Below, piece after piece: positions 27,157-62,011 of a DNA stretch of 63,835 nucleotides. The notes under the pieces are model-generated. The model saw only the letters and a program-made list of their open reading frames with translations, did not search any database and was not told the DNA's origin. This DNA comes from Gammaproteobacteria bacterium. Lineage in GTDB: Bacteria; Pseudomonadota; Gammaproteobacteria; JACCXJ01. The stretch's first letter is position 1, and the number at the start of each line of letters is the position of its first letter. Made by a program: the position numbers and the translations under genes. The stretch spans positions 1 to 63,835 of the forward strand of contig JBQTJM010000017.1 in assembly GCA_052387115.1 (NCBI GenBank), in the 5' to 3' direction.

Positions 27157-27159
27157 ATC

Positions 27160-30293: not shown

Positions 30294-30297
30294 GGCG

Positions 30298-31917: not shown

Positions 31918-31929
31918 GAGAAAAAAAGC

Positions 31930-34848: not shown

Positions 34849-34897
34849 CGGGGCTGCGGCTTGCGGCGATTCCCTAGTCGGATGCGGTGAACGTCTC

Positions 34898-43742: not shown

Positions 43743-46223
43743 GTGTGGATGGTGGCTCCCATATTGCAGGTCTGGTGTTTCTATCGGTATCGAGCAGGGT
43801 ACTCAATTACGGGGCTTTCCGGCAATGCTGCGGGGCTTTTCCGCCGGCCGCCGTGTAGCCGCTACCCCTTCGATTCGCTAGAATCACAAGGCACGGCCGA
43901 GGTTCTCGGGGAGGGAGCCGCCATCGTCACAGAGACGAAAACCGTAGAGTTCCGCAGTTCCTACACGCGCAAGCGCACCAGCGTGAGCGTGTCTTCGGGG
44001 CGTCTGTACCTGCTCGGTTGCGATACGGGTGACGGCATCGATCTCGAGGGTTCGGATGTGCTGGCCCGCCATGCCCGGTTGTGTACCCACGAGACCGGCG
44101 TCGTAATCGAACCGGTCGGTGAGGCCCCCGTGTCCCTGAACGGCCAACCCATCACCATCCCCACCCGCCTGCGGGACGGGGACTGGCTGGCGCTCGGCGA
44201 GACGCTGTTCCAGGTGCATCTGCCGGATAGCGAGTTCACACGACCACCCACCGCCCGGCCGCGCCCGCCCGGCCCGGGCAAGACCCAGGCACCCGGCGAC
44301 ATCGTCACCATCGGCCGCGACCCGCATTGCGACCACACCATCGATTCGCCACTCGTCTCGCGCGAGCACGCCAGGCTCATCGGCGAGGGCGGTGCGATCT
44401 ATGTCGAGGACTTGAAGAGCACCAACGGCACCTTCGTCAACGGGCAACGTCTGACCGGCCGGGCGCAGGTGCGGCCCGGGGATCGGGTGGCCATCGCGAC
44501 CTTCGCCTTCGTCTTCACCGGCGAAGCGCTCGAGCCCATCGACGAGACGGGAAGGGTGCATGTCGAGGTGCGGGGCCTCTACAAGGCGGTCCCGGACCGC
44601 GCGAGCGGGGGGGTGAAGCACCTGCTCGATCAGGTGAGCCTGGTGTTCGAGCCGGGCGAGTTCGCGGTCATTTTCGGCACCAGCGGCTCGGGGAAATCGA
44701 CCCTGCTCGATGCCCTCAATGGGCGTCGTCCCGCCACCGGCGGTCAGGTCCTGTACAACGGTACCGATCTTTATGCGTCTTTTGATCTCTTCCGTGCCGC
44801 CATCGGCTACGTGCCCCAGCAGGACATCGTGCATCGCAAGATCCGGGTCTCGCGCGCCCTCTACTACACCGCCCGCCTGCGCCTGCCACCCGACACCACC
44901 GATGAGGAGATCGAGGCCCATATCCACCGGGTGCTCGATAAAGTGGGCCTGGCCGAGAAGGCCGATCTGCCCATCGACACGCCGGCTCCCCTGAGCGGCG
45001 GCCAGCTCAAACGCGTGAGCCTGGCCGTGGAGCTGGTCGCCAACCCCAACATCCTGTTCCTCGACGAGGTCACGAGCGGGCTCGATGCCGGGACGGACAA
45101 GCGCATGATGCGGCTCTTCGCCGATCTCGCCGGCGATCAGAAGACCGTCATCTGCGTGACCCACACCCTGGAGAACATCGATGTCTGCAACCTCGTCGTC
45201 CTGCTGCATCGCGGCCGACTGGTCTATTTCGGCCCCCCCGGCGAGGCACCCGGTTACTTCGGCGTCGCGCGACTCGCCGAGGTCTACGAGCTACTGGAGT
45301 CCGAGCCCGCCGAACACTGGGCGGAGAAATTCCTTGCCTCCCCCCAGCATGAAACCTATGTCGCGGCGCGCCTGTCTTCCGACAGCGGTGTGCGAGGGGA
45401 GGCGACTCCCGCGCACGCCCCCGCCCCGCCGCGGCGGCGCTGGTTCGACTGGTCGCAGACGGCGATCCTGATGCGCCGCTATGTGGATCTGATCCTGGCG
45501 GACAAACGCAACCTCGCGATCCTCTTGCTGCAAGCCCCCCTGATCGCCGCCGTCATGGGCATGGTCTTCGACACCAGCGGCCCGCTTCTTGCCCGCGCCC
45601 GAGCGGAGAGTCAGGTCGCATTCATGTTGGTCCTGTCCGCGATCTGGTTCGGTTGCCTGAATTCTGCGCGTGAGGTCGTGAAGGAACTTCCGGTGTACTT
45701 GAGAGAGCGCTCGGTAAGCCTCGGTATCGGCCCGTATCTCACGAGCAAGCTCCTGCCGCTCGCGCTGCTGGCGGCCTTCCAGTGCGTGGTCCTGCTCGCA
45801 GTGGTCTCTGCAATGGTGTCTCTGCCGGGGAGCTTTCTCGACCGTGCCATCGCCCTGTTCCTCGCCGCGATGGGAGCGACGGCCATGGGGCTGGCCGTGA
45901 GCGCCTTCGTGGACACCAACGACAAGGCCGTGGCCATCGTCCCCATCCTGCTCATCCCCCAGGTCATCCTCTCGGACGCGGTGGTGCACCTGGGCGACGC
46001 GGGCCGGGCCTTCGCCAAGGCGACCATGGTCTCGTTCTGGTCCTTGGATGCGATGAAAGCCACATTGAGCCGGGAGGTCCTGGACGCCAAGGACCCCATG
46101 GGCGAGTTGCTGGTGCCGCGATCCGGAGAATACTTATTCGACCTCGGGATGGTGGCGGTGCTGGGTTTGGCGTTCTTGTTCGTCGCCTGGCTCGGGCTGA
46201 GACTCAAGGACCGGCGAGGTTGA
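43743..46223 (+). CDS. FHA-FHA-ABC transporter: ATPase plus ABC-2 type membrane domain in one polypeptide.
   Basis: A degenerate FHA-1 (LLGCDTGDGIDLEGSDVLARHARL...VSLNGQPI). A canonical FHA-2 (VTIGRDPHCDHTIDSPLVSREHARL...DLKSTNGTFVNGQRL). Walker A GTSGSGKST, signature LSGGQLKRVS, Walker B ILFLDEVTSGLD, then 5-6 TM helices. The true start is probably near 43900-43990: a TAGAAT -10-like box at about 43877 and GGAGGGAG at about 43910 precede the first FHA, and the first ~55 ORF-track codons do not look coding. Confidence 0.85.
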   Translation: MWMVAPILQVWCFYRYRAGYSITGLSGNAAGLFRRPPCSRYPFDSLESQGTAEVLGEGAAIVTETKTVEFRSSYTRKRTSVSVSSGRLYLLGCDTGDGIDLEGSDVLARHARLCTHETGVVIEPVGEAPVSLNGQPITIPTRLRDGDWLALGETLFQVHLPDSEFTRPPTARPRPPGPGKTQAPGDIVTIGRDPHCDHTIDSPLVSREHARLIGEGGAIYVEDLKSTNGTFVNGQRLTGRAQVRPGDRVAIATFAFVFTGEALEPIDETGRVHVEVRGLYKAVPDRASGGVKHLLDQVSLVFEPGEFAVIFGTSGSGKSTLLDALNGRRPATGGQVLYNGTDLYASFDLFRAAIGYVPQQDIVHRKIRVSRALYYTARLRLPPDTTDEEIEAHIHRVLDKVGLAEKADLPIDTPAPLSGGQLKRVSLAVELVANPNILFLDEVTSGLDAGTDKRMMRLFADLAGDQKTVICVTHTLENIDVCNLVVLLHRGRLVYFGPPGEAPGYFGVARLAEVYELLESEPAEHWAEKFLASPQHETYVAARLSSDSGVRGEATPAHAPAPPRRRWFDWSQTAILMRRYVDLILADKRNLAILLLQAPLIAAVMGMVFDTSGPLLARARAESQVAFMLVLSAIWFGCLNSAREVVKELPVYLRERSVSLGIGPYLTSKLLPLALLAAFQCVVLLAVVSAMVSLPGSFLDRAIALFLAAMGATAMGLAVSAFVDTNDKAVAIVPILLIPQVILSDAVVHLGDAGRAFAKATMVSFWSLDAMKATLSREVLDAKDPMGELLVPRSGEYLFDLGMVAVLGLAFLFVAWLGLRLKDRRG

Positions 46224-46231
46224 GTGCAAAG

Positions 46232-47968
46232 ATGAGCGCTGTCGAACCAACCTCCGCGCGTGCCTGCCCGAAGTGCGAGGCCGTCAATGCGGAGCACGAT
46301 GTCATCCACGCGGAATACCGGTGCGCGAGCTGCGGCTTCGAGCTTGCGCACCTCGACATCGCCGTCAACGGCGCGATCCGGGGGGTGTTCGGTTGGCTGC
46401 GGGCCGCCGGCGATACCATCCAGGACCGCTACCAGGTCCGATCGGTCCTCGGTAAGGGCGGCTTCGGCGCCACCTACCTCGTGGACGATCTGCGTTTGAA
46501 CGGAAAACGGCGGGCGCTCAAGGAGGTGCCGGAGATCCTCTTCGACGAGTACGAAACCGCGCTCCTGAGTCGTCTGCAGCACCCCTCGATCCCGGACATC
46601 ATCGATCGCTTCGCGGCCGGCGGCATGGTGTATCTGACCCTGGAATTCGGCGGCAGCCGCACGCTCGCGAGCGAGCGTAACCGCCAGGGCGGGCGCATCC
46701 CGTTCGCGACGCTCCTGCCGTGGATGCGCCAGCTCTGCATGGTCTTGACCTACCTGCACACCCAGAGCCCGCCCATCATCCACCGCGACTTGAAGCCCGA
46801 GAACATCCTGCTGGATGAGGATGGTCGCATCATGCTTATCGATTTCGGGATCGCCAAGGAGGCGACGCCCTCCAGCATGACGCGAACCCTGGGCCGCGCC
46901 GCGACGCATGGATTCAGCCCGCCGGAGCAGGTCATGGGCACCGGCACCGACCAGCGCTCCGACGTCTATGCCCTGGGTGCGACGTGCTATGCGCTGCTGA
47001 CCGGCGAGAGCCCGCCGGCCGCGCACGAACGCGTCGCCGGCAAAGAACTGAGACCGCCGGGGGAGTCGAGCCCCGAGATCCCGGAGGGGTTCGGCGCGGC
47101 CTTGCTCCAAGCGCTCAGCCTCAACGTCAACCACCGGCAGCAGTCCGTGGCGGAATTCAGTCGGATGATCGAGGGCTCGGAGTCGACCGCTGCCCCGCCG
47201 CGAACCCCTTCCGCTTCGGCGCGGACGACGATGGTCGGCAAGGTCCCGAGTCGCCCTACGGCCAAGCCCAAGAGCATCCGCATCCCGACCGCCGGTACCA
47301 CGGGCCCACAGTCACCGCCTACCGCCGTGCCGTCGCCGGGTGCCGCGCCGAGTCGCATGCGAATGGCCATCGGGATAGGGGCCGCGGCGATCATCGCCAT
47401 CGCCGGTGGAGGCTATTACTTCTGGAGCGGGTCCGAGCCCGAGCCCTCCGAGACGCCGCCACCGGCGCAGACCGCCATCGCTTCACCCGCACCGGCGCCG
47501 AGTAGTCCGCCCGATGCCATCCCCTCCGTCCCTGTTCCTGCACCGGCGCCGCGAGCTTCCGGGGTCGAAGCGGTGCAGCCTCAGGTAGCAGCGCCGCCGC
47601 TCGCCGGACAGGCACCGGTCGGGGGCGAATCTGCTCAATCGATCCTAAACAACTACAGCGGCGGTTCACCGGAGGCCTCGCCTACCGCCGCCGTCACACC
47701 GGCCGCGGCCGTGCAAGCGCCTGTGCGCCCAAGCCCGCCACCTGTGCCCACACCCAGCGCAAGCGGCCCGTCGGCCGGGGGGATCCTGGACGATAACCGT
47801 GGGGGGGTCACGCGAGAGCCTCAAAAAGCACCGCGTAGCATCGCCGGCGCCGGTGCCACCAGGACGCCGTCGAGGCCGCCGAAGCCCCGATCGAGCCGGC
47901 CCGCCCCGCAACCGAAGGATGAGCCGAAGTGGGAAGCGGGGGGTTACAGATCCTATCAGAGCCGCTAA
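46232..47968 (+). CDS. Membrane Ser/Thr protein kinase with an N-terminal zinc ribbon and a proline-rich extracytoplasmic tail (kinase 1).
   Basis: Zinc ribbon CPKC...17 residues...CASC. Kinase: GKGGFGATY, RALKEV, HRDLKPENILL, DFGIAKE, GFSPPEQ. TM: MAIGIGAAAIIAIAGGGYYFW. It starts 8 nt after the ABC gene stop. Confidence 0.88.
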   Translation: MSAVEPTSARACPKCEAVNAEHDVIHAEYRCASCGFELAHLDIAVNGAIRGVFGWLRAAGDTIQDRYQVRSVLGKGGFGATYLVDDLRLNGKRRALKEVPEILFDEYETALLSRLQHPSIPDIIDRFAAGGMVYLTLEFGGSRTLASERNRQGGRIPFATLLPWMRQLCMVLTYLHTQSPPIIHRDLKPENILLDEDGRIMLIDFGIAKEATPSSMTRTLGRAATHGFSPPEQVMGTGTDQRSDVYALGATCYALLTGESPPAAHERVAGKELRPPGESSPEIPEGFGAALLQALSLNVNHRQQSVAEFSRMIEGSESTAAPPRTPSASARTTMVGKVPSRPTAKPKSIRIPTAGTTGPQSPPTAVPSPGAAPSRMRMAIGIGAAAIIAIAGGGYYFWSGSEPEPSETPPPAQTAIASPAPAPSSPPDAIPSVPVPAPAPRASGVEAVQPQVAAPPLAGQAPVGGESAQSILNNYSGGSPEASPTAAVTPAAAVQAPVRPSPPPVPTPSASGPSAGGILDDNRGGVTREPQKAPRSIAGAGATRTPSRPPKPRSSRPAPQPKDEPKWEAGGYRSYQSR

Positions 47969-48025
47969 TCACCAAGTCGCGGCTTTCGCTTTAAGACCAA
48001 CGAAACCCGAGAAAAGGAGCAACCA

Positions 48026-49252
48026 ATGGTTACTAAGAGAGTTAGCTTCCGGGCTATCCCGCCCGTTACCAGAGCAGATCGCTGCGCTTTCCACTTCGGC
48101 ACGTTGCTACTAGCTTTCGGTGCGTGCTTTGGCTCAGCGGCGCTAGCGGGAGGCGGCGTGGGCTACGCCGTACCCGGCGGATACGGTCTCAAGATCTACC
48201 GGGCCAGCTCGGAGCTGTACCCGTTCGTCCAGGTGTACTTTCGGACCTTCAACGAGCGCATGCAACCGCTCGTAAATCTAAACTTTATGAACGTCGGTGT
48301 CATGGTCAAGGGCAAGTCCTACGACCCCCGCAAGCAACAGTACGCGATCCAGTCGATACGCCAGCGGCAGGAGGCTACCCGCACCGTCTTCGTCCTCGAT
48401 GCCAGCAAGTCGATGCAGGGTGCGCCCTTCAGTGCTGCGGTCCGCGCCGCCGGGCGCTACTTCGATGCCAAGCGCCCGCAGGATGAGGTGGCCATCCTCG
48501 CCATCCGGGATACCAAGGACGGCTATGAGCTCGTGTCGCAGTTCGAACGTGACCCCGTTGCGCTTGCCCACCGGCTGCTGGACGTCAAGGCCGACGGGAT
48601 GAAGACGCGCCTTTACGACAGCATCGGCGCGGCCATGCAGATGTGCGGCATGACGGCTCAGGGCACGGCGGTCGCGCCTGGGGCTTCCAACATCGTCGTA
48701 TCCTGTTCCATCTTGGTCTTCTCCGATGGTTTCGACGAGGGCAGCGCCATCTCGCGTGAAGAATTGAATGCCCGCATCACCAGCCTGTCCATCCCCGTCC
48801 CGGTGTACTCGCTGGCCTATTCGAAGACCTATAAGGATTACTTCAAGAACCTCGAGGCGATCTCCAAGAATTCCTTCGGGGTCTACTATCTGCTCGGTGA
48901 TACCGTGGACCGCATGCAGCAGATCGTCGAGGAGGTCTTGAACATCATCCTGAGCGATTATGTGGTCACGTTCCGCTCGTATCTCCCGGTGGACGGCGAG
49001 GAGCATGGCTTCAAGCTCGGCGTGGAATACCCCTCGGGCAGTGGCAAGTACACCTATGAGAGCTCGCGTTTCGAGGCCATCGAGGTACCGCCGGCCGAGT
49101 CCCTGGCCGCGATCTCGGCACAGCTCAATCAGGCGATACCGGCCGCTCCCACCGGTCCTTATTTCGACAAGCCGGGAGAACCGGGCGATGCCGCCCCTAC
49201 CGGCTTTCCTCAAGCCCCGGTCCCAGACTCGGCGCCGCCTAAAGTCAACTGA
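48026..49252 (+). CDS. Secreted von Willebrand factor A (vWA) domain protein.
   Basis: RBS aaggag upstream. Signal peptide LLLAFGACFGSAALA. MIDAS motif VFVLDASKSM (DxSxS), then KTRLYD and VFSDGFDEGS. Confidence 0.85.
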   Translation: MVTKRVSFRAIPPVTRADRCAFHFGTLLLAFGACFGSAALAGGGVGYAVPGGYGLKIYRASSELYPFVQVYFRTFNERMQPLVNLNFMNVGVMVKGKSYDPRKQQYAIQSIRQRQEATRTVFVLDASKSMQGAPFSAAVRAAGRYFDAKRPQDEVAILAIRDTKDGYELVSQFERDPVALAHRLLDVKADGMKTRLYDSIGAAMQMCGMTAQGTAVAPGASNIVVSCSILVFSDGFDEGSAISREELNARITSLSIPVPVYSLAYSKTYKDYFKNLEAISKNSFGVYYLLGDTVDRMQQIVEEVLNIILSDYVVTFRSYLPVDGEEHGFKLGVEYPSGSGKYTYESSRFEAIEVPPAESLAAISAQLNQAIPAAPTGPYFDKPGEPGDAAPTGFPQAPVPDSAPPKVN

Positions 49253-49298
49253 TACCGGTCACGATAGGGTGCACACCCAAACTGTATTGGAGGTTGAT

Positions 49299-49916
49299 AT
49301 GTCATTAACTGCTACATCGAAAGTCACCGCCCTGGCGCTGTGCTGCGGGGTGCTGTCCGGCTGCGCCACGACGGACGGCAACCAGCAACTCCTCGGCGCT
49401 GGGATCGGCACGGCCCTCGGCTGCGGGATCGGATATGCGATCGGGGGGGACGTTGGCTGCGCGGTCGGAGGCGCGCTGGGTGCCGCGGCCGGCTGGGGAG
49501 TCGTGGCACAGTATCAGGCGACGCAAGTGCGCTCGGCGGCTCAAGACCAGCAACTGTATGGCGTGACGGAGCCAGTAACCACTACCCAAGTGCAGATCCG
49601 CAAGGCGACTGCAGATCCGGCAAGCATAAAACGCGGGGGCACAGTACAGGTCACAACGGATTACTCGCTGATGCTGCCTCGCTCGATGAAAGCCCAAGGC
49701 ACGGATGTACAGGAGAGCTGGGTGCTGAAGAAAGACGGGAAAGTCCTTTTGAATGTGGCGCCCAAGAATAATCACCACCCCGAAGGGGGTTGGAATGGGG
49801 TACAAGACTTCCCTGTTCCCGGTAATGCCGAGCCTGGTACCTATGTCGTTGAAAGTAAGGTGCAAGTTGGGACTAGCTACGACACGGTCGAATCGGCCTT
49901 CGTTGTTGAATCATAG
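49299..49916 (+). CDS. Lipoprotein with a glycine-zipper segment and a ~108-aa C-terminal domain shared with the 50970-53045 protein.
   Basis: Lipobox ALALCCGVLSGC. Glycine zipper GAGIGTALGCGIGYAIGGDVGCAVGGALGAAAGWG. The C-terminal domain is at nt 49587-49913. Confidence 0.8.
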   Translation: MSLTATSKVTALALCCGVLSGCATTDGNQQLLGAGIGTALGCGIGYAIGGDVGCAVGGALGAAAGWGVVAQYQATQVRSAAQDQQLYGVTEPVTTTQVQIRKATADPASIKRGGTVQVTTDYSLMLPRSMKAQGTDVQESWVLKKDGKVLLNVAPKNNHHPEGGWNGVQDFPVPGNAEPGTYVVESKVQVGTSYDTVESAFVVES

Positions 49917-49928
49917 GCCAGCAGGAAC

Positions 49929-49972
49929 GGCTACGGGGATTCCTGATTGCGGCTACGGGGATTCCTGATTGC
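49929..49972 (+). repeat. Perfect 22-bp tandem duplication spanning the predicted start of the M48 peptidase gene.
   Basis: ggctacggggattcctgattgc occurs twice, at 49929-49950 and 49951-49972. Confidence 0.95.
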
Positions 49973-50696
49973 GGCCTCCTTGTGGCTCGCGGTCTCGGCA
50001 ATTGCCGAGACCGCGGGTTTTTGCGAGGGCGAGCGCGAACGGGCCCGGACGAACGCGGAGCGCATCGAGCGGGAATGGCCGCTTAGAGGGAGCGGCGAGG
50101 GGATCTCGCGTTATACGCAGTCGCTCGTGGAGCGTCTTGCATCGCAGCCCCGGCGTCACCATATCGCGTGGCGAGTCGCCGTGGTCAGAAATCGCGCCCC
50201 CAATGCCTTCGCAGCGGGTGGGGGCTATCTCTATCTTACAGACGGTGCGTTGGCATTCTCCCAGACCGAGTCGGAGCTGGCCGCCATCCTGGCCCACGAG
50301 ATGGGACATCAGATCTCCGGCCATTTCTGCCCGCGAGAGAGGCCGGGTTTTTTCCGTTGGCTGTTCGGGCGCTCGGACGATACCGCGGAGACGTCTAGGC
50401 ACGACGTGCGTGAGAAAGACCTGGGCTCGGTGTCGGTGGTCATCGATCCGGTGAAGGAACAGGAGGCGGACCGGCAGGCCGTAACGATCTTGCGGGAGGC
50501 CGGCTATGACCCGCACGCCATGCTCGATGTCGCGAAGCGCCTCCCGTCCGGCGGCCGCCCTTCTCACCTTCAGGACCCGCGCCGCATTCGATCCCTGGAG
50601 GCATCGCTGGCTGCAATGCCGTCGATCCAGACCGCCGACTCGGAGCCTTTCCAGGAGGCAAAACGGGAGCTCGAGGCCGATCTGAAAAGTTGGTGA
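49947..50696 (+). CDS. M48-family zinc metalloprotease, periplasmic.
   Basis: Signal peptide FLIAASLWLAVSAIA. HExxH motif ILAHEMGHQISGH. The only in-frame start is the TTG at 49947, inside the first copy of the duplication. Confidence 0.8.
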   Translation: MRLRGFLIAASLWLAVSAIAETAGFCEGERERARTNAERIEREWPLRGSGEGISRYTQSLVERLASQPRRHHIAWRVAVVRNRAPNAFAAGGGYLYLTDGALAFSQTESELAAILAHEMGHQISGHFCPRERPGFFRWLFGRSDDTAETSRHDVREKDLGSVSVVIDPVKEQEADRQAVTILREAGYDPHAMLDVAKRLPSGGRPSHLQDPRRIRSLEASLAAMPSIQTADSEPFQEAKRELEADLKSW

Positions 50697-50969
50697 GGGC
50701 GCGCAATCGGGCCTATGATGCGGCAAATTGCTCGACGATCGCAGGGATCATCGAGTTAGCTGCCGGGTTAGGCATTGCAGATTCTATACGACGGTTTTTG
50801 CTTTGTTCCAGTTTGGTCTTACGCGAATCGTTCTAAACTATTCTAGATAGGAGTCGATAATTATGGATTTAAGGGAGGTCCACGCTCTATTTTCTAGCAA
50901 TGCTGGCCCGCGCATCCGACCGGTGGGACATCCGTAACGCTTGCAGGAACGATAAAGGAGGTAAACGTC

Positions 50970-53045
50970 ATGGCGCCAGTCATGCAGCATCTAATATCAT
51001 CGCTTCGTGTCGCACGGAACGTCGGCAAATACCTGGCTGGGGTGCTGTTTATCTATGTCGCCGGCTTCGCGCTATACGCTTGGTTCCAGTTCGACCTGGC
51101 GAAGTCGAAACTTCTCACGTACGGTGTCTCGTCGGCCACCGCTTCAATGGTCGCGACGGCGGTACTACTAGTAGCGGTCGCTCTTCCCGCGCTGGCGATC
51201 CCTCGTATCGTTATGAGACGTGGGAGGTTTATGGACTATCTGGCGGTATTTACTCTACCCCTCATTTCGTGGGGCGCGGGACAAATCCCAGCCAACTTCG
51301 ATGCGCGAACAGGGCAGGCCCTCCATTACTGCGCAGAAAGGCCCGATCGAACCCTGTACTGTCTCGATCACCCCGGGAGGGATCCTATGACGCAGCGGGA
51401 GCTTGTTCCTATAAATCAAAACATGGCTGAGACAGTGTATCGCAGGGAGCATGGAGTGATTCCGCAACCGATTACCCGTCCTCTGGCAGAGATAGTGTTC
51501 TTTGATCCAGTCTCCGGGCAGCCGAAGATTTGGGTGCAAAAGAACAAAGGCGATTGTTATGACCTATTCGATAACCCCGGGTCTCACCAACAAACCGGCG
51601 AGCGACTCATCCCCGTATCAAGAGATATCGTGCAGGTATTGAATCAATGCTACGCGGCAAATACACCACAAAAGTATTGCGCCACTCGCCCAGATGGAGA
51701 GCTGTTCTGTCAGGACGGGCCAGGTATCGACCCGATTACTCAGCAACGCCTTATACCGATGACGGAAAACCTCGCTGACGTCGAATATCGAAAGTCGCGG
51801 GGGCTGGTCCCACATAGAATCACGACTGCAGTCGCCAAGATAGAGTTCTTCGATTCGCTAACTGGCAAACCTCGGGTATGGTTCCTTCAGAACGAAAGTG
51901 GGTGTTACGAGATGTTCGATCACCCCGGTGTGCATCCACAGACGGGAGAGCAATTGAAGCCAGTTACAAAAGAGGTCGTTCGGGCGATCGTAGGGTGCTC
52001 CGCAGTCGTAGACAAGAAACCTTTAGGGTCCGAAATGCCGGGCACAGGAGGCGGATCGTATACGCTAGCTCCTACCTCAACCGCAGTTCGCCAACAGATA
52101 GGGACGACGAATCAGAATTCAGATATTCCTAGTATAAATGGGCTTGAATCGAAAGCAGAAGCGAATGATGGCGCATCGTACGTACGACAGATGATTTCTT
52201 ATGCGGCTGCCGGTGATCAACGAAGGGTCCAGGAAATAAGAGGGCTATTAGAACGGACACGGAAGGTACCACGAGGGAATCGACGGGGAGCACGGCAATT
52301 GAATGACGAAGGATTGGAAATGTTTCGAGTAGGTAACTATACCGAAGCGCTTCAATCGTTCCGGTTGGGGCACGAAACCGATCCGGGAGATATAGAGATA
52401 CACAACAACATGGGTTACGCACTGCTGATGGTCGCGGACCTTGCAGGAGCGGAAGCGGTGCTCATTGAGGTGCTGATGCTTGCTCCGGGGCGAGCCGCTG
52501 CCTGGGGCAATCTGGGACACGTGTATGCGAGGCAAGGCAAGCTACAGGAAGCCATAGCGTCATTTAGTAATGTATTGAGGTTCTCTTCGAACCCTGGGAA
52601 AGCATTGGCATTCTTTGCTAATGCGGCGGAAAGCGATCCGGACGCCAACGTCCGGGAGGCGGCTCGACGAGTGCGTGAGATGTCAAACAGCATTAGTGAA
52701 CCGTCGAAGGCACCGTATTTGCTGATCCGAAGAGCGACTGCTACGCCAAGCGCTGTCAAACCGGGTGACACCGTGCAGATCGATACGGACTATTCGCTGA
52801 TGATGGCGCCGGGAACGACGGCGCAGGGAGCGGACGTGCAGGAGAGCTTCACCCTGAAGAAGGACGGTAAGGTGCTCACCAACTCGGCGCCGAAGACGTT
52901 TCATCGTGCCTCCGGAGGATGGGTTGCGACTAAGAGGCTCCCCATCCCGCAGAATGCCGAACCCGGTACGTATATCATCGAAACCAAAGTCCAGGTCGGT
53001 TCCAGTTACGATACCGATGAGATCGTCTTCATCGTCGGCTCATAG
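50970..53045 (+). CDS. 691-aa membrane-anchored protein: 2-3 N-terminal TM helices, two ~110-aa four-cysteine repeats, TPR repeats, and the C-terminal domain shared with the lipoprotein.
   Basis: RBS aaggagg lies 7 nt upstream. The Cys repeats are at aa 120-234 and 236-346. TPR-like helices: NDEGLEMFRVGNYTEALQSFRLGHETDPGD... and AAWGNLGHVYARQGKLQEAIASF. The C-terminal 109 aa are about 60 percent identical by eye to the C-terminus of the 49299-49916 lipoprotein. GC content is visibly lower than in the flanks. Confidence 0.85.
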   Translation: MAPVMQHLISSLRVARNVGKYLAGVLFIYVAGFALYAWFQFDLAKSKLLTYGVSSATASMVATAVLLVAVALPALAIPRIVMRRGRFMDYLAVFTLPLISWGAGQIPANFDARTGQALHYCAERPDRTLYCLDHPGRDPMTQRELVPINQNMAETVYRREHGVIPQPITRPLAEIVFFDPVSGQPKIWVQKNKGDCYDLFDNPGSHQQTGERLIPVSRDIVQVLNQCYAANTPQKYCATRPDGELFCQDGPGIDPITQQRLIPMTENLADVEYRKSRGLVPHRITTAVAKIEFFDSLTGKPRVWFLQNESGCYEMFDHPGVHPQTGEQLKPVTKEVVRAIVGCSAVVDKKPLGSEMPGTGGGSYTLAPTSTAVRQQIGTTNQNSDIPSINGLESKAEANDGASYVRQMISYAAAGDQRRVQEIRGLLERTRKVPRGNRRGARQLNDEGLEMFRVGNYTEALQSFRLGHETDPGDIEIHNNMGYALLMVADLAGAEAVLIEVLMLAPGRAAAWGNLGHVYARQGKLQEAIASFSNVLRFSSNPGKALAFFANAAESDPDANVREAARRVREMSNSISEPSKAPYLLIRRATATPSAVKPGDTVQIDTDYSLMMAPGTTAQGADVQESFTLKKDGKVLTNSAPKTFHRASGGWVATKRLPIPQNAEPGTYIIETKVQVGSSYDTDEIVFIVGS

Positions 53046-53145
53046 GCCGTCACGGTAAGTAGCCGCCAGGTGCATCCGGCGAAGCGGGATCTGGCAGCCG
53101 AGCTCGGTGGGTGGTGAGAGGGTGCCGGATCGCGGCGGGCCTACC

Positions 53146-53462
53146 ATGACGTATCGGCCTTTTTTCTGATCGCCGTCGGCGCGCTCTTGGCGTATACCAA
53201 CCCCACTCTCGACAGCTACCAGCAATACCTCCGGCAATCCATCCTGAAAGGATCTAAGCAGCAGGAGAACCCGGTCGAACAGGCCCTCGGGGCCGTCCTG
53301 AGCGGCGTCGCGAGCGGCGTCATCGCCAGCCAGACCGTACGCACCGACTACGTGTTCTGGAGCACCTACGAGACCCCGCTTACCGACAGCGAGCGCTTGC
53401 GCGCGGTTGGGGTGCTCAAGAACTTCTTCATGATCGAGAACCCCGCCGTCAGGGGCGAGTGA
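53146..53462 (+). pseudogene. Small TM protein (DUF4359-like, named from memory) whose ATG is out of frame with the body by one base in a T6 tract.
   Basis: ATG 53146 gives MTYRPFF then a stop. The body (53187-53462) encodes AYTNPTLDSYQQYLRQSILK...YVFWSTYETPLTDSERLRAVGVLKNFFMIE. With seven T's at 53160-53165 the product would be MTYRPFFLIAVGALLAYTNP..., matching the paralogue at 54004-54429. Confidence 0.6.
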
Positions 53463-53652
53463 CAGGCCTCTCCGGCAGATGACCGGGCCGGCCTCTTGCG
53501 ATCCCGCTGTTCCGGTATTGGGCTAAAGTGCCGGGGCGGGGCGTCCCACTCATGTGGTATAAACGCGGGCATACGGGGCTTTTCTGCTTATGCTCACGGG
53601 TTTCAGAGACTGTCTCGCGGAGGGCCCGCGCATCCGCGTAGGGCCGCGATGA

Positions 53653-53790
53653 CCACGACAGTATCTACTTCGGGTTTTCTCGCGCCGCCCGCAATCCATC
53701 GACGATGCGATCCAGTGCTCCCTGGCCAAAACGCCGGCCGAGCGCTTCCAGAGCGCCACTGAGTTTATCCGCGCACTGGCGCCTTCGCTG
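53653..53790 (+). pseudogene. Remnant of the C-terminal lobe of a Ser/Thr kinase, in the same open frame as the downstream DUF4359-like gene.
   Basis: SIDDAIQCSLAKTPAERFQSATEFIRAL is the typical end of a Hanks kinase domain. No N-lobe or catalytic loop lies upstream; a TGA at 53650 opens the frame. Confidence 0.55.
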
Positions 53791-54003
53791 CGCGGCCATG
53801 CGAGCGAATCTCGTGCAGGTGACCGCCGTAGCACAGCGCGCGTTGCACATGACAGTTTGGATAGTCCTCTAGGCGCGGAGCTGCTCCCAACCTTCGTTCC
53901 CGTGGGCGAGCAGGCAGCGATCGCTCCATCAGGTATCGCCGCGCTCCCCGACGCAGGAGAACAGGAACCGCATTCCCCAAAGCGGGGCGTAAAACCTCGG
54001 CCC

Positions 54004-54429
54004 ATGGAGGCGAAGCGACCAATGCCTATGGCGAATATCGACAAGCCAGGGATTGCAGAATGGCTACGCGCACTCGGCGGGCTGGATCGAGACCGGCTCC
54101 CCGTGAAATCGATAGTATCGACCCTCGTCGCGGTTGCGGTCGGCGCGCTTTTAGCCTTTACCAACCCGACCCTGGACAGTTATCAGCAATACCTCCGGCT
54201 ATCCCTCCTCAAAGAAACCAAGGGGCTAGAGAACCCGCTCGAACAGGTCCTGGGCAGCGTCCTCGGCGGCGTTGCCAGCGGGCTCATCGCCGGTCATACG
54301 GTGCGCGAGGATTATGTATTTTGGAGCACCTACGAGACCCGGTTCACCGACATGGAGCGCCTCCGGGCGATCGGCGTCCTCAAGAACTTTATCGTCATCG
54401 AAAATCCCGCCACGCCAAGCGGCGAGTGA
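54004..54429 (+). CDS. Small TM protein, paralogue of 53146-53462 (DUF4359-like).
   Basis: IVSTLVAVAVGALLAFTNPTLDSYQQYLRLSLLKE...YVFWSTYETRFTDMERLRAIGVLKNFIVIE. Start uncertain: the frame is open from 53653 and the first ATG is at 54004. Confidence 0.65.
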   Translation: MEAKRPMPMANIDKPGIAEWLRALGGLDRDRLPVKSIVSTLVAVAVGALLAFTNPTLDSYQQYLRLSLLKETKGLENPLEQVLGSVLGGVASGLIAGHTVREDYVFWSTYETRFTDMERLRAIGVLKNFIVIENPATPSGE

Positions 54430-54869
54430 TACGCCGCTCACCCTGAGCGTTTCGTGGCCGCCGCCGAGAGTGACCTGGCCCGCGTGCGGTCTCGATCGAC
54501 CCGGTCTAACCCGACCCTCCGCCGCCTACCGTGGCGCAGCTCTTTGCCTCGGTCGGCGGTAATCTAGGGACGGCTATCATGAAGGCAACCGCAACTTGAT
54601 GCGCAAGCTGCCGTCCTCTCAAACCTGCCCATTTCTACATTGCGAGACGACACTGAATATCGTACCCTTATCCGCTTTTAGGGCATTACCTTTTGATCAA
54701 TGCCGAGGCAGCGGGGGCCGTGTGCGCCGCGCTACTCAGCGATCCCGAAGCCCTGGGTACGTTTATGGGCAAGCTAAAGGGGTGATTTCGCCATGGTGGC
54801 GCAGTTCCACGCCTTCCTACTCGCGACCACGATCCTCGCGCCGCCCCTGCGCGATGGCGGGGCCTGATC

Positions 54870-56495
54870 ATGACGGCTGCCCTGGCTGCCGAGTCCTACA
54901 CCTGTCCGAGGTGTGGCGAGCGCTCGACCAAGGGGGAGATCTCGGGGAAGGGCTTCCACTGCCCGCGTTGCACCTTGGAGCTGGCACACCTGGAAGTTGC
55001 GCCCAACGGCACGGTGCGCCAGGTGCTCGGCTGGCTGCTCGCCCCAGGAGAGCTGTTACAGGGACGCTACCGCGTGTCGAGCGTGCTCGGCAAGGGAGGG
55101 TTCGCGGCGACCTATCTGGTCACGGACGAACGGCTCCAGGGCAAGCGCCGGGCGCTCAAGGAAGTACCCCGGGACCTCTACGACGAGCACGAGACCGGGC
55201 TCCTGGCGCGCCTGCGGCACCCGGCGATTCCCGACATCAGCGACCACTTCGAGATGGAGGGCATGGGGTACCTGGTGCTCGAGTTCGGCGGCACGCAGAG
55301 CCTGGAGGGCGAGCGCAAGGCGAGCGGCGGCACCATCGCGGTGGAGCGGCTCGTCCCTTGGATGCGACAGCTCTGCGAGGTCCTCGCCTACCTCCACGGC
55401 CAGGTGCCGCCCGTCGTGCACCGGGATCTCAAGCCCGAGAACATCCTGCTCGACGAAGACGACCGCATCATGCTGATCGACTTCGGGATCGCCAAGGAGT
55501 CGGCAGAGCTGGCGGTAACCCGCACGCTGGCGCGCTCCGTGAGCCATGGTTTCAGCCCGCCCGAGCAGGTACTGGGCACCGGGACGGACCAGCGCTCGGA
55601 CGTGTACGCGCTCGGGGCGACGATGTATGCGCTCCTCACCGGGACGGTGCCGCCGGCGGCGCACGAGCGGGTGGCGGGGAAGGAGATCACCGCGCCGCGG
55701 GCGCTGAACCCCGCGATCCCCGAGACGCTGGAGTCGGTGATCCTCCAAGCGCTCGATCTCAATCTCAAACTTCGCCCGCAGACGATCGCGAAGCTGAGCT
55801 GCATCTTCGCGCCGGGGACCCTCGACGCGCCCCCGCCCGCTCCAGGCCTCAGCACGCGCACGGTTCGGGTCGGGGAGCAGATGCCGCTCCCGGCGCCGGT
55901 CCGGGCCTCGATCCGGGTGAGGCAGGCGAGTGTCGCGCCTCCCGCAGCCGCGCGTCACGGTCGGCGTGTGCCCTCGATCGCAGCAGGGGGCCTCGTTGCC
56001 GTCGCGGCTGTCCTTGCGGCGTGGCGTCTTCTCGAGCCGTCCTCGCCAGCCACCGCACGCTCGGAATCCCCCGCCATCCCGGTGGCGGCTATCCCCGCGG
56101 CGCCGCTCGCCACCCCAACCGAGTCGCCGCCGACGCCACAGCCGGGGCTACCGCAGCCTCCTCGTGCGCAGGAATTGGGAGGGGCGGGTCCGATCATCGA
56201 CGAAGGGCTGCGCAAGAAAGAGCTGGCAAGGGTGGTGGCGACGACCCCGGAGCCGTCGCCGAGTCCCTCGCCATCCACCAGACCGGTTACGCCGGACCCG
56301 GTCCCGAAGGTGGCTCCGCCTCTTGATCTGACAGGCACGAACAAAGCGGTAAACCAGAAGCAGCCGCCCGTAGCCGTGGCGCCATCCCCGTCGCGATCAC
56401 CGAACCCGCCACCGGCCAAGACGCAGGCGACACGAGGCCCGGCAACGAAAGTCGCTCCCCCACTCGATCTGATCGACAAGGTGCATGACAGGTGA
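54870..56495 (+). CDS. Membrane Ser/Thr protein kinase with an N-terminal zinc ribbon and a proline-rich tail (kinase 2), paralogue of 46232-47968.
   Basis: Zinc ribbon CPRC...16 residues...CPRC. Kinase: GKGGFAATY, RALKEV, HRDLKPENILL, DFGIAKE, GFSPPEQ. TM: IAAGGLVAVAAVLAAW. The tail carries KVAPPLDL twice. Confidence 0.88.
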   Translation: MTAALAAESYTCPRCGERSTKGEISGKGFHCPRCTLELAHLEVAPNGTVRQVLGWLLAPGELLQGRYRVSSVLGKGGFAATYLVTDERLQGKRRALKEVPRDLYDEHETGLLARLRHPAIPDISDHFEMEGMGYLVLEFGGTQSLEGERKASGGTIAVERLVPWMRQLCEVLAYLHGQVPPVVHRDLKPENILLDEDDRIMLIDFGIAKESAELAVTRTLARSVSHGFSPPEQVLGTGTDQRSDVYALGATMYALLTGTVPPAAHERVAGKEITAPRALNPAIPETLESVILQALDLNLKLRPQTIAKLSCIFAPGTLDAPPPAPGLSTRTVRVGEQMPLPAPVRASIRVRQASVAPPAAARHGRRVPSIAAGGLVAVAAVLAAWRLLEPSSPATARSESPAIPVAAIPAAPLATPTESPPTPQPGLPQPPRAQELGGAGPIIDEGLRKKELARVVATTPEPSPSPSPSTRPVTPDPVPKVAPPLDLTGTNKAVNQKQPPVAVAPSPSRSPNPPPAKTQATRGPATKVAPPLDLIDKVHDR

Positions 56496-56499
56496 CGCC

Positions 56500-57150
56500 A
56501 TGAATCATCGAATCTCCCGAACCCTCGCAACAACTTTGCTGGCATTCGCCGCTCTCGCACTCTTCTCGGGCTGCGCGCGCCGCATGGCCATGGGTCACCC
56601 CAGTCAGTCGGCCCAGGAGAAGATGAATGAAACTAATGAAGCTGCTATTGCGAGGGGCACGAAGGCGATCGAGGCGAACCCAAACGATCATGAGGCATAG
56701 TAGGCGTGGAATCGCGTTTCCTCCTGGGGCAATGCTATCAGCAACTCGGCAAGTGGGCGCGAAGCAAAAGGGGCATACGAGGAGCTCGTCGCGGCGAACC
56801 CGTACGAGAAAGAAGCGTTCGCCAACCTCGGCCTCGTCAAGACGAAGCTCGGAGATTCGGAAGGCGCCGTGGCGGGCTTCTCCAAAGCGCTCGAAGTGGA
56901 TCCCAAGTTCCTGGACGCACGCAGGAACCGCGGCACGGTGTACCTCGGCCAGAAGCGTTACGACAGCGCGATCGAGGACTTCTCCGCCGTCCTCGCCGAG
57001 GATGGCAGTGACGCGGGGACCCTGTACAAGCGCGCCTACGCGTACTGCACGAACGGCAATCCGAAGCTCGGCACTAAAGACTTGCTGGATGTTCTGCGCA
57101 TAGAGCCGAAAAATGATGAGGCAAAAGCGCTCCTGCGGGAATGCACTTAG
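56500..57150 (+). pseudogene. TPR-repeat lipoprotein gene interrupted by a tandem TAG TAG and two compensating frameshifts.
   Basis: Lipobox LALFSGC and ...AIEANPNDHEA in frame 1, with stops at 56698-56703. ESRFLLGQCYQQLGKW follows in another frame (56706 to about 56757). Then EAKGAYEELVAANPYEKEAFANLGLVKTKLGDSEGAVAGFSKALEVDP... returns to frame 1 and runs to 57150. Confidence 0.55.
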
Positions 57151-57279: not shown

Positions 57280-57613
57280 ATGAAACTGCCGAACGCTGAC
57301 AACGCCGTAATACCGACAGAGAAGTTGCGGGGCTATTTGTTGTCATCCTCACATCCGGTGGGCAGATTCAAGGGCGTCTTCTTTCGCGCGCTTGGGTACA
57401 CAGACGCTGATTTGGGAGCGGTTGGAAGCCGATATTCGATCGATTCTCACCAATGATGCGACGGTGAGAGAACAAACGGAGTATGGTCAGAAGCTCGAGG
57501 TCAGAGGCAGCATAACGGGTCCAGCCGAGCGGAATGCTGAGATCGTGACGGCCTGGATCATACTGAAAGGCGAGAGCGTCCCGCGGTTCATTACGGCCTA
57601 TCCGGGAGATTAA
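57280..57613 (+). pseudogene. DUF6883-family protein (putative toxin of a DUF6883/DUF4926 pair) with a +1 frameshift.
   Basis: MKLPNADNAVIPTEKLRGYLLSSSHPVGRFKGVFFRALGYTDAD, then a shift at the TTT at 57411-57413, then WERLEADIRSILTNDATVREQTEYGQKLEVRGSITGPAERNAEIVTAWIILKGESVPRFITAYPGD. Confidence 0.65.
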
Positions 57614-57615
57614 AG

Positions 57616-57846
57616 ATGAAACCAAGGGTACTTGACACGGTGGTGTTGGAAAAAGACCTGCCGAGCCAGGGGCTACGGCGAGGCGACGTTGGAGCGGTGA
57701 TGGAAGTGTACGAACCGGATGGGCTGGAGGTCGAGTTCGTGACCGGTTCGGGTCGAACTCAGGCCCTGGTCACGCTGAAGGTGGCTGAAGTTCGCCTGAT
57801 CACCGATACCGATATTCTTGCGGTCCGGTCTTTGCGCGCGGCCTGA
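57616..57846 (+). CDS. DUF4926-family small protein.
   Basis: MKPRVLDTVVLEKDLPSQGLRRGDVGAVMEVYEPDGLEVEFVTGSGRTQALVTL. It starts 2 nt after the DUF6883 stop. Confidence 0.7.
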   Translation: MKPRVLDTVVLEKDLPSQGLRRGDVGAVMEVYEPDGLEVEFVTGSGRTQALVTLKVAEVRLITDTDILAVRSLRAA

Positions 57847-57953
57847 GCTGCGGCTAATAATATGCCAAACATAGACGCGCCAACCGGTGCCGCGCCGGTT
57901 AGGGCCGCCTGCGAGTCTTCCATGCTAGGGCGCACGAGCTTGCGAGCCGAAGT

Positions 57954-58001
57954 ATTGGAGGATAGTGGACCGGTTTATAATCTAGTCTTTTCTAGCCTAG
58001 A
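57954..58001 (+). promoter_or_regulatory. Sigma-70-like promoter plus a palindromic operator candidate upstream of the phd/yefM-like gene.
   Basis: TTGGAG (57954-57959), 16 nt, TATAAT (57976-57981). The palindrome TCTAGcCTAGA is at 57991-58001, with a further CTAG upstream. Confidence 0.45.
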
Positions 58002-58021
58002 GGTAGGCATACACGAGCATC

Positions 58022-58264
58022 ATGAAGACCGAGATCGGTTCCAATGAAGCCAAGACCAGGCTTCCGGAGTTGTTGCGCCAGGTGAAGAGCGGGAAGAGCT
58101 TTACTATCACCAATCGTGGAAAAGCCATCGCGGACCTCGTGCCCAGCGTCAGTGCGAGGACCAAGGACAAAGTGGCGGTCGTGGAAAAGCTCAAGGCATT
58201 TATGCTGGAAGCTCCAGTGCGGGGTGTGAATATAAAGGACCTCATCGAAGAGGGGCGTGCGTGA
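58022..58264 (+). CDS. Phd/YefM-family type II antitoxin.
   Basis: MKTEIGSNEAKTRLPELLRQVKSGKSFTITNRGKAIADLVP. Confidence 0.8.
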   Translation: MKTEIGSNEAKTRLPELLRQVKSGKSFTITNRGKAIADLVPSVSARTKDKVAVVEKLKAFMLEAPVRGVNIKDLIEEGRA

Positions 58265-58551
58265 GCTTCGTTCTCGACAATTCCGTGACCATGCGCTGGT
58301 TTTCTGGCGATGGGAAGCCACAAGAACTACGCTTCGCACGCGGAGTGCTCGATGCAATGAAGAATGCAAGCGCCCTTGTTCCGGTGACTTGGGGACTCGA
58401 GGTCGCCAACGTGATCGCCGCTTGCCTGCCTATGATATCCCGCCTCTGCCCGCGAATCCGCCGTATCAAACTCAGGGCGAATGATCTCCCGGGTTCCGCT
58501 GCATTGCACCCGGGCTATTTGCTTGCTACGCTTACTACAGAACCAAGTTAG
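58261..58551 (+). pseudogene. PIN-domain (VapC-like) toxin retaining only about the first 50 codons.
   Basis: VSFVLDNSVTMRWF...LVPVTWGLEVANVI is PIN-like. After about nt 58410 no frame continues the PIN fold. GTGA overlap with the antitoxin stop. Confidence 0.55.
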
Positions 58552-58562
58552 AGGCAATAGCG

Positions 58563-58793
58563 ATGGAGATATTCCCAGGCATTTCAATGGACTCCGGCAT
58601 CCGATTTGGTAAGCCCTGTTTGGCCGGGACACGGATCGATGTGGTCACGGTGGTCGGTACGCTTGCGGCTGGCGAAAGCTTTGAGGCTGTGGAACAGGCG
58701 TATGACCTTACCCACCAGCAGGTTCTAGATGCGCTTCGTTATGTGGCGCATGTGGCCGCCCATGTACCGCCGGCAGTGAAAGTGGCCTCGTGA
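58563..58793 (+). CDS. DUF433-family antitoxin-like protein.
   Basis: DSGIRFGKPCLAGTRIDVVTVVGTLAAGESFEAVEQAYDLTHQQVLDALRYVAH. Confidence 0.75.
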   Translation: MEIFPGISMDSGIRFGKPCLAGTRIDVVTVVGTLAAGESFEAVEQAYDLTHQQVLDALRYVAHVAAHVPPAVKVAS

Positions 58794-59080: not shown

Positions 59081-59110
59081 TATATCAGGTGCACCCCAGA
59101 GGCCATCGGC

Positions 59111-59921: not shown

Positions 59922-62000
<2,079 letters not shown>

Positions 62001-62011
62001 GCGCCTGCTCG

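Follow-up and report, generated by a model that had tools for sequence, protein, structure and literature searches.

In Mycobacterium tuberculosis the ATP-binding cassette (ABC) exporter Rv1747 is regulated by PknF, the kinase encoded in its operon (PMC3138270), and the linker between its two N-terminal forkhead-associated (FHA) domains carries the phosphorylation sites T150 and T208 (PMC3138270, PMC5549992, PMC8339232). The TerY-P triad combines a TerY-like vWA protein with a PP2C phosphatase and a kinase that has a C-terminal zinc ribbon or oligonucleotide-binding (OB) fold (PMC11090510). Here we describe a locus that shares parts with both systems. It lies in a stretch of 63,835 nucleotides (hereafter the window; contig JBQTJM010000017.1, assembly GCA_052387115.1) from a gammaproteobacterium of the GTDB lineage JACCXJ01, where five adjoining genes at 43743-50696 encode, in order, an FHA-ABC transporter, a Ser/Thr kinase with a zinc ribbon, a secreted vWA protein, a glycine-zipper lipoprotein and an M48 metalloprotease. 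Comparison of related loci indicates that this cassette is almost certainly a real conserved unit, and its sequence features suggest, at what we consider about even chances, a periplasm-controlled, phosphorylation-gated exporter. A preliminary description, made from the sequence alone, had instead joined eleven consecutive genes (43.7-57.2 kb) into one system of signaling and envelope parts.

A scan with one genome per species returned 80 related loci, from Methylococcales, Chromatiales, Nitrosomonas, Sedimenticolaceae, Desulfobacterota/Syntrophobacterales, Planctomycetota, Hydrogenedentota and Sumerlaeia, with a few on contigs binned to other phyla. Components were counted over the 39 loci with full flanks by mapping the window proteins on to them. 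The FHA-ABC gene is present in all 39, and so is the kinase gene, which adjoins it; the lipoprotein gene occurs in 34 and the M48 gene in 31. PP2C (9/39) and DUF4359 (6/39) genes are optional extras to the cassette. The order is fixed in Methylococcales, Chromatiales, Nitrosomonas, Desulfobacterota and Planctomycetota, while Hydrogenedentota form a permuted exception, in which the vWA gene precedes the FHA-ABC and kinase genes and a lipoprotein-like gene follows them. Two individual loci illustrate the pattern: Methylotuvimicrobium sp. KM1 carries genes for the FHA-ABC protein, kinase, vWA protein, a 205-aa protein, M48 and PP2C, and an 86%-identical relative has the same flanks as the window around FHA-ABC, kinase, vWA, lipoprotein, M48, kinase-DUF4359 and DsbH-like genes, the last of which lies 5 kb further on in the window (59901). 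When all flanking open reading frames (ORFs) of the 80 loci were clustered, PP2C was found in 14 of them and no further conserved partner family emerged, the remainder being antisense shadow ORFs. Because the flanks differ between taxa, the cassette is self-contained.

These results bear out the proposal that the signaling and envelope parts belong together, for the ABC transporter, kinase, vWA protein, lipoprotein and M48 protease co-occur in order across phyla. The gene-neighborhood search that the preliminary description had called for thus finds adjacency far beyond chance, and the outcome that it named as fatal to its idea, that the genes would not co-occur in other genomes, is not what we see. 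Each of the domains is individually common, which is what an explanation by chance adjacency of unrelated genes can draw on; an order kept in 80 loci of several phyla, between flanks that are not conserved, refutes it for the five core genes, and we consider its probability negligible. We found no account of the cassette in open-access literature on the gene combination, FHA-ABC proteins or DUF4359, and an earlier mention in a comparative-genomics study is possible. The same literature yielded no description of the periplasmic trio of vWA protein, lipoprotein and M48 protease, and none of the cassette proteins reached an NCBIfam equivalog cutoff.

The transporter is predicted to be an ABC-2/ABCG-like, exporter-type half-transporter. 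It matches the ABCG/White-type model TIGR00955 with E=9e-60, which is below the cutoff of that model, and its Walker A, signature and Walker B-Glu motifs are conserved in 52/52 orthologues. Which start codon is used within 43743-43764 is uncertain, and there is no conservation over the first ~60 residues. The second FHA domain (FHA2) is canonical, with G191, R192, S206, H209, N228 and G229 present in all 52 orthologues. FHA1 is degenerate: its phosphate-binding Arg is found in 6 and the Ser in 7 of the 52, and the window protein has neither. When the FHA region was compared with solved FHA fragments in the PDB, the best match was Rv1747 FHA-2 (6cah, E=3e-9), and Rv1747 FHA-1 matched with E=7e-6. 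The gene set around the FHA-gated ABC exporter had been presented as unmatched by any described system; for the exporter this does not hold, as two FHA domains and an ABC transporter with an adjoining kinase gene is the architecture of Rv1747/PknF (PMC3138270). The suggestion that the linker between the FHA domains is the phosphorylation site is not supported either, because this linker (19-56 aa) is unconserved and lacks Thr altogether in 14 of the 52 orthologues.

The cassette kinase, STPK1, consists of a zinc ribbon (residues 12-34), a Hanks kinase domain, a Thr-rich juxtamembrane segment, a single transmembrane helix (~376-394) and a Pro/Ala/Ser-rich tail of 184 aa that is predicted to be periplasmic and ends in KWEAGGYRSYQSR. 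The CPxC...CxxCG, GKGGFG, HRDLKPxN and DFG motifs are kept in every kinase orthologue. Across 62 sequences (61 orthologues and the window's own) the tails are 120-250 aa long and of low complexity, rich in Pro, Ala, Ser, Thr and Gly, and none of the 62 contains a folded periplasmic domain. A Trp nevertheless occurs within the last ~20-30 residues of 53 of them, and 36 fit one of four clade-specific motifs: W-x-I-I-P-G-x-x-x-K-T-D (17/62), W-G-F-x-Y-K-G (8/62), W-Q-K-A-N-x-N-T-Q-F (8/62) or D-W-G-N-Q (3/62). A Trp motif placed in this way, at the end of a long and disordered tail (window 47700-48200; L003-L083 among the related loci) resembles a tethered peptide ligand.

The products of the remaining three genes carry the signals expected of periplasmic proteins: the vWA and M48 proteins have signal peptides, and the lipoprotein has a lipobox (L-S-G-C). 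In its AlphaFold2 (AF2) model the vWA protein has an N-terminal helix at residues 16-34 and a vWA fold with flanking strands, which come from both the N- and C-terminal parts and form a beta module. The metal ion-dependent adhesion site (MIDAS) is complete, as had been noted (D125, S127, S129, T194 and D234, conserved in 79-80/80). A Foldseek search with this model returned integrin I-domains and ITIH1, that is, the generic vWA fold, and the hundreds of relatives at 62-92% identity have no informative names. Identity of the vWA protein is 53-93% across all related loci and 53-70% across phyla. The M48 protease, likewise intact, has an HEMGH motif of the HExxH type and E171 (H117, E118, H121 and E171 conserved in 57/57) and a pair of cysteines, Cys26 (56/57) and Cys128 (55/57). 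It scores 64.1 bits against Peptidase_M48 (PF01435; cutoff 20.3) and 61.7 bits against the NCBIfam model of BepA (cutoff 570); with 249 aa it is short, and it has no TPR.

The lipoprotein combines a glycine-zipper helical hairpin, modeled at low confidence, with a C-terminal beta-sandwich (residues ~97-205) modeled at an AF2 confidence score (pLDDT) above 93. An exhaustive HMMER search of 1.84 billion proteins placed this C-domain in 127 cluster representatives, mostly lipoproteins of ~200 aa, and in 7 of the 10 large family members tested it sits at the extreme C-terminus of a Pkinase protein. One of the ten (P0275, 498 aa) has the beta-sandwich C-terminal in a caspase-domain (Peptidase_C14) protein. 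DUF4359 is fused behind a kinase and a transmembrane helix in L003 and L004, two of the three closest relatives (L003-L005; ~81-92% DNA identity across the cassette). Since both modules are found fused to kinases, both behave as extracytoplasmic kinase partners.

The properties of the exporter and the beta-sandwich also bring up a reversed logic, in which the exporter would supply a lipid or glycolipid that the periplasmic trio receives, processes or anchors as a pathway of envelope building, and the kinase would do no more than tune this flow in response to cytoplasmic cues perceived through its zinc ribbon. ABC-2/ABCG-type exporters commonly move lipids and glycans. Rv1747 has been linked to the levels of phosphatidylinositol mannoside (PIM) glycolipids (PMC5549992), the beta-sandwich weakly matches the lipid-binding NPC2 and GM2-activator proteins in Foldseek, and a kinase that keeps its zinc ribbon and has no folded periplasmic domain would suit a cytoplasmic input. 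The NPC2-like matches, however, are weak (template modeling scores 0.3-0.58), the beta-sandwich and DUF4359 recur as extracytoplasmic ends of kinases, as is typical of sensor modules, and the conserved motif at the end of the kinase tail co-varies with the lipoprotein (see below). We regard this reversal, the chief rival of the mechanism proposed below, as somewhat unlikely.

Comparison of the window with L005 localizes where the cassette diverges. The ABC gene, the kinase domain and the vWA gene are 91-97% identical in DNA; identity drops in the kinase tail (57-67%) and over the lipoprotein C-domain and M48 N-terminus (60-73%), and nowhere else. At the protein level the lipoprotein is 59% identical in its C-domain and 87% in its N-part, compared with about 93-95% for the ABC and vWA proteins. 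The mosaic lipoprotein/M48 segment (49450-50200, with 52724-53117 further downstream) suggests either duplication and recombination or a cassette-like exchange of the sensor domain.

We used partial Mantel correlations over 33 loci, controlled for ABC and kinase-domain identity, to follow how the tail motif varies with the other components. The correlation is strongest with the lipoprotein C-domain (r=0.46, p<=0.001), followed by the lipoprotein N-part (r=0.35, p<=0.001), the vWA protein (r=0.16, p=0.017) and M48 (r=0.10, p=0.06). Although its gene stands between those of the kinase and the lipoprotein, the vWA protein co-varies least save M48, which makes simple linkage unlikely. The co-variation is suggestive of a link between the tail motif and the lipoprotein C-domain. 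In its most specific form this link would be a switch across the envelope: the beta-sandwich, aided by the MIDAS of the vWA protein, would capture the Trp peptide of the tail, the M48 protease would edit the complex, and capture or release of the peptide would set the activity of the kinase and so gate the exporter through a single FHA domain. So detailed a scheme is unlikely to be correct in full; if it were, strains could differ in how their sensor is tuned, by way of a lipoprotein domain that is hypervariable and exchangeable.

The simpler and broader mechanism that we propose, a periplasm-controlled, phosphorylation-gated exporter, begins with a periplasmic assembly of the MIDAS-bearing vWA protein, the glycine-zipper lipoprotein and the M48 protease, which would control a membrane kinase that itself lacks a sensor domain. 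The tip of the kinase tail would most likely dock on the beta-sandwich of the lipoprotein, and the protease may trim one of the partners. Once activated, the kinase would autophosphorylate on Thr of its activation loop or of the Thr-rich juxtamembrane segment. FHA2 would bind that phosphothreonine, or one placed on the transporter, and this binding would switch or cluster the ABCG-like exporter, as PknF does for Rv1747. The cargo may be an envelope lipid, a glycolipid or another small molecule. A PP2C, where encoded, would reset the switch; as this genome has none within 64 kb, resetting here would depend on a phosphatase encoded elsewhere.

What the sequences show directly is the architecture, the intact motifs, the topology signals and the co-occurrence. 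Of the steps, only the first, the periplasmic control of the kinase, has direct sequence evidence behind it; the later ones we infer, together with the interaction partners, the phosphorylation site and the cargo. Considered separately, gating of the exporter by phosphorylation in the manner of Rv1747 is moderately probable, and sensing from the periplasm to the kinase through the lipoprotein is plausible and somewhat short of probable. Several observations weigh against the proposed mechanism. FHA-1 is indispensable in Rv1747, and here FHA1 is degenerate; the linker that holds the phosphorylation site in Rv1747 is short, unconserved and often free of Thr; and PP2C is absent from most loci and from the window. 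The tail motif of the window's own kinase (KWEAGGYRSYQSR) is divergent, and the Foldseek matches of the beta-sandwich are generic (weak Ig-like matches besides the NPC2-like and GM2-activator ones). The controls of the Mantel analysis were themselves significant (lipoprotein N-part, as given above; kinase domain, r=0.21), so that residual phylogeny inflates the signal, and the direction from periplasm to kinase is one that we infer. Phosphorylation-gated export or envelope surveillance, which the preliminary description had offered as a possible function, remains the reading that fits best.

That description had also considered a conflict system. An anti-phage or inter-bacterial system akin to TerY-P, with the hypervariable lipoprotein domain as an invader-sensing surface, would fit the co-occurrence of a vWA protein, a kinase and sometimes a PP2C, the hypervariability of periplasmic parts and swapping of domains between close relatives, and a distribution across phyla that is patchy; toxin-antitoxin remnants lie alongside the cassette in the window, and CRISPR-Cas genes lie nearby in L003. 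The cassette nevertheless departs from the definition of TerY-P (PMC11090510) in having a secreted vWA protein, a zinc ribbon at the N-terminus of the kinase and, usually, no PP2C. PADLOC had no match for the vWA protein, the lipoprotein or the M48 protease, and only generic models for the kinases and the ABC ATPase. A search for relatives of the vWA protein found none on plasmids or viral contigs, the level of vWA identity kept across phyla is very high and unusual for fast-evolving defense genes, and no nuclease or other recognizable effector is present. A role in conflict is therefore improbable.

The region 3' of the cassette has a different history (Table 1). The five cassette genes are conserved, and the other six are absent from relatives or degraded, so the eleven-gene unit is not supported. 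The 691-aa protein is composed of a transmembrane and duplicated Cys-repeat module, TPRs and a lipoprotein-type beta-sandwich. Pfam has no model for the rare family of its N-terminal module, and the neighborhoods of that family are unrelated contexts in which we found no link to a kinase or vWA gene. The segment at 50.7-53.17 kb is absent from L003-L005 except for the 3' end of the 691-aa gene, which matches the lipoprotein gene of these relatives. The preliminary description was right that the lipoprotein and the 691-aa protein share a C-terminal domain (53% identity over 131 aa, E=1e-42); it is not private to them, since its family, with 127 representatives, includes many kinases. The copy on the 691-aa protein is 81% identical to the L005 lipoprotein C-domain and 58% to that of the window lipoprotein. 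An M48 remnant follows the 691-aa gene directly; it ends in AKRDLAAELGGW and a stop codon and matches the end of M48 in L004/L005 (KRDLAAELSGW and stop). The L005-type C-domain and the M48 remnant together suggest duplication and recombination in this segment.

The genes further downstream are largely damaged. Of the two DUF4359 transmembrane proteins reported earlier, the domains are genuine, both copies exceeding the cutoff of PF14271, and the intact separate genes are not. DUF4359a has lost its native ATG and the start of its membrane helix (the L005 orthologue starts MRSIVIGLFVIAAGALLAYTNP), homology with the relatives beginning only at 53167. The second copy is part of the same gene as the kinase remnant, which is real: a kinase C-lobe remnant (53653-53856) is in frame with the transmembrane and DUF4359 part (an ORF from TTG 53857 to 54429), and a 727-bp deletion relative to L004, at window position 53688, took the start and most of this third kinase. 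The intact kinase-transmembrane-DUF4359 gene of L003 encodes 308 aa. In the supposed TPR lipoprotein gene the TPR matches hold, in its 3' part, and the intact gene does not: two in-frame stop codons (TAG TAG, 56698-56703) interrupt it, and the TPR reading hops frame for ~55 nt in an apparent double frameshift. This gene has no counterpart in any related locus and is a pseudogene or the result of a sequencing error. We rejected a Bat-like system of vWA, TPR and MoxR proteins, as a MoxR ATPase is missing and the TPR genes lack conservation.

The second kinase, STPK2, is intact and paralogous to the cassette kinase; it too has a zinc ribbon, kinase domain, transmembrane helix and Pro-rich tail. 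It is 57% identical to STPK1 over 359 aa (blastp) and shares 62-69% identity with kinases that accompany the cassette in Desulfobacterota and Planctomycetota loci. Among L003-L005 it finds only weak paralogous DNA similarity to the STPK1 gene, and it is absent from L003, which spans the position. Two cassette-type kinases beside one FHA-ABC gene also occur in several other lineages (L012, L051, L062, L063 and L071), and an extra paralogous kinase such as STPK2 is thus a recurrent elaboration. In L051 and L063 the cassette is split or partly duplicated.

A single extended system of all eleven genes in this organism could claim the shared strand and close spacing, the lipoprotein-type domain on the 691-aa protein, the relation of STPK2 to the cassette kinase, and the fact that additional kinase and DUF4359 genes recur next to the cassette in other lineages. 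Of the six added genes, however, three are damaged; the 691-aa gene, STPK2 and the TPR gene are missing from relatives that are ~81-92% identical in cassette DNA; the N-terminal family of the 691-aa protein lives in unrelated neighborhoods; and GC departs from the surroundings in both directions (0.545 and 0.705, the latter, 70%, in the STPK2 region). We find such a system hard to credit. The six non-core genes are better described as lineage-specific accretions, several of them inactivated and none apparently required for the core. Further downstream, 57392-59720 holds a toxin-antitoxin-type array of DUF6883/DUF4926, a Phd-like antitoxin with an unassigned ORF, DUF433/DUF5615 and a ribbon-helix-helix (RHH)/PIN pair. 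Several of these genes match only part of their Pfam models and are probably decaying. The accretions, the damaged genes and the partial toxin-antitoxin pairs downstream together mark the 3' half as a zone of insertion and decay.

Table 1. Genes and gene remnants of the 43.7-57.2 kb region, in window coordinates
Feature	Positions	Strand	Support
Core gene 1: predicted FHA-FHA-ABC_tran-ABC2_membrane half-transporter, 826 aa	43743..46223	+	Pfam
Core gene 2, STPK1: N-terminal zinc ribbon and Ser/Thr kinase	46232..47968	+	Pkinase E=4e-34
Core gene 3: secreted vWA protein	48026..49252	+	Pfam VWA_2
Core gene 4: glycine-zipper lipoprotein with beta-sandwich	49299..49916	+	weak Gly-zipper Pfam matches
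Core gene 5: secreted short M48 metalloprotease, 249 aa	49947..50696	+	Peptidase_M48 E=2e-17
Chimeric gene, 691 aa, GC ~0.55	50970..53045	+	TPR by Pfam
3'-end remnant of a second M48 copy	53076..53117	+	match to L004/L005 M48 C-terminus
DUF4359 gene a, 5'-truncated	53187..53462	+	DUF4359 45.2 bits vs cutoff 27
Truncated third kinase (kinase-transmembrane-DUF4359 fusion)	53653..54429	+	one shared reading frame; DUF4359 36.2 bits
STPK2, intact paralogue of cassette kinase	54870..56495	+	Pkinase E=4e-34
Disrupted TPR lipoprotein gene	56500..57150	+	three-frame translation, DNA

The window is chromosomal, with a GC content of ~65%. All eleven plus-strand ORFs of the preliminary description were recovered where it had placed them, and every plausible gene at 43.7-57.2 kb is on the plus strand. 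Its domain calls held up in Pfam (two FHA, ABC_tran, ABC2_membrane, two Pkinase, VWA_2, a weak Gly-zipper, Peptidase_M48, TPR and two DUF4359), as did the tight spacing (8 nt between the ABC gene and STPK1, 4 nt between STPK2 and the TPR gene), the low-GC segment (0.545-0.548 at 51-53 kb, against about 0.65 elsewhere in the window) and the lack of a PP2C, for which no window ORF of 60 aa or more gave a match at E<=1e-6. A promoter and terminator scan of 43-60 kb gave counts no higher than in shuffled sequence and is hence uninformative on operon structure; Rfam and tRNA scans of the whole window gave no match.

Upstream of 43.7 kb lie rpoN, pgk, gap, metK, ahcY and metF, together with an exopolysaccharide-type cluster, a D-Ala-D-Ala carboxypeptidase gene and a short-chain dehydrogenase gene. 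A long plus-strand run (22907-35683) resembles an exopolysaccharide- or PEP-CTERM-associated cluster and contains genes for a sigma-54 activator, an AAA_22 ATPase, epimerases, a glycosyltransferase, an asparagine synthase, an FAD oxidoreductase, a methyltransferase and a hexapeptide transferase. On the opposite strand, 5.6 kb upstream of the cassette (36807-38135), a further gene joins a Ser/Thr kinase to a cyclic-nucleotide-binding domain; with 27-29% identity, this kinase is not related to those of the cassette. Between a phosphotransferase system (PTS)-type gene and pgk, GC is lower (0.60-0.63 at 12000-16300) and few ORFs have high GC at third codon positions. An AbiEii/DUF6036-like nucleotidyltransferase gene (61997-62578, plus strand) lies 3' of the DsbH-like thioredoxin gene, and in L003 type I-C CRISPR-Cas genes come after the equivalent position.

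Were the proposed mechanism correct, phosphorylation-gated ABC exporters would leave the mycobacteria and extend to methanotrophs, purple sulfur bacteria, nitrifiers, sulfate reducers and Hydrogenedentota. To our knowledge, Rv1747/PknF is the only exporter of this kind that has been studied, and the cassette would add to such a pair a defined periplasmic input module, which Rv1747/PknF is without. Two orphan modules, the beta-sandwich of the lipoprotein and DUF4359, gain a function by association. As a compact system of five genes, the cassette further lends itself to the question of how a Hanks kinase perceives signals when it has no folded sensor domain, and it has culturable hosts in Methylotuvimicrobium buryatense 5G (where it lies at about 2.378-2.399 Mb of NZ_KB455575.1), Marichromatium gracile and Nitrosomonas mobilis.

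Among known systems, the periplasmic M48 proteases BepA, YcaL and LoiP and glycine-zipper lipoproteins such as SlyB act in outer-membrane quality control and stress. The cassette resembles them in its short secreted M48 zinc protease and its glycine-zipper hairpin lipoprotein, which, unlike SlyB, adds a beta-sandwich domain. We know of no link between either of these families and a kinase or an ABC exporter. PpkA, the kinase of the H1 type VI secretion system (T6SS) pathway, carries a periplasmic vWA domain. That pathway, TagQRST-PpkA-Fha1-PppA of Pseudomonas aeruginosa (PMC10482370, PMC7817224), is a functional analogue: its envelope-sensing module, like the cassette, brings together an outer-membrane lipoprotein and a periplasmic protein with an ABC transporter, a membrane Hanks kinase, an FHA reader and a PP2C. 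In the cassette, by contrast, the vWA domain forms a secreted protein by itself, there is an M48 protease and PP2C is optional; its ABC transporter is of the ABC-2/ABCG type with FHA domains fused to it, whereas TagST is of the FtsX/MacB type, works with a stand-alone FHA protein and has the T6SS as its output. No T6SS domains were found in the window genes scanned by Pfam or among conserved neighbors in the 80 loci. The DRA0331-DRA0334 operon of Deinococcus radiodurans likewise joins vWA, Ser/Thr kinase, FHA and PP2C; according to that report (bioRxiv 10.64898/2026.01.23.701218), the FHA domain there forms a protein by itself or is joined to the phosphatase, the operon includes neither an ABC exporter nor a lipoprotein or M48 protease, and it is linked to DNA-damage signaling.

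With TerY-P the cassette shares a vWA protein, a zinc-ribbon Hanks kinase and, in the 14 related loci that have it, a PP2C within one operon. It differs in that its vWA protein is secreted (N-terminal signal/anchor helix) and has no PADLOC match, that the kinase has its ribbon at the N-terminus and ends in a transmembrane helix and a low-complexity tail, and that an ABC exporter, a lipoprotein and a protease are added, with no restriction or Ter linkage and, in the window, no PP2C. The closest system in architecture, and probably in logic, is Rv1747/PknF (PMC3138270, PMC5549992, PMC8339232). Both have an exporter-type half-transporter with two N-terminal FHA domains, an ABC ATPase and an ABC-2-type membrane domain, and both have the gene for a membrane Hanks kinase adjoining on the same strand, although the ABC gene comes first here and pknF precedes Rv1747 there. 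Unlike in Rv1747, FHA1 is without its phosphate-binding Arg and Ser and the linker has no conserved Thr; unlike PknF, the kinase carries a zinc ribbon at its N-terminus and a long tail in the periplasm; and in this diderm host vWA, lipoprotein and M48 partners have been added to the pair.

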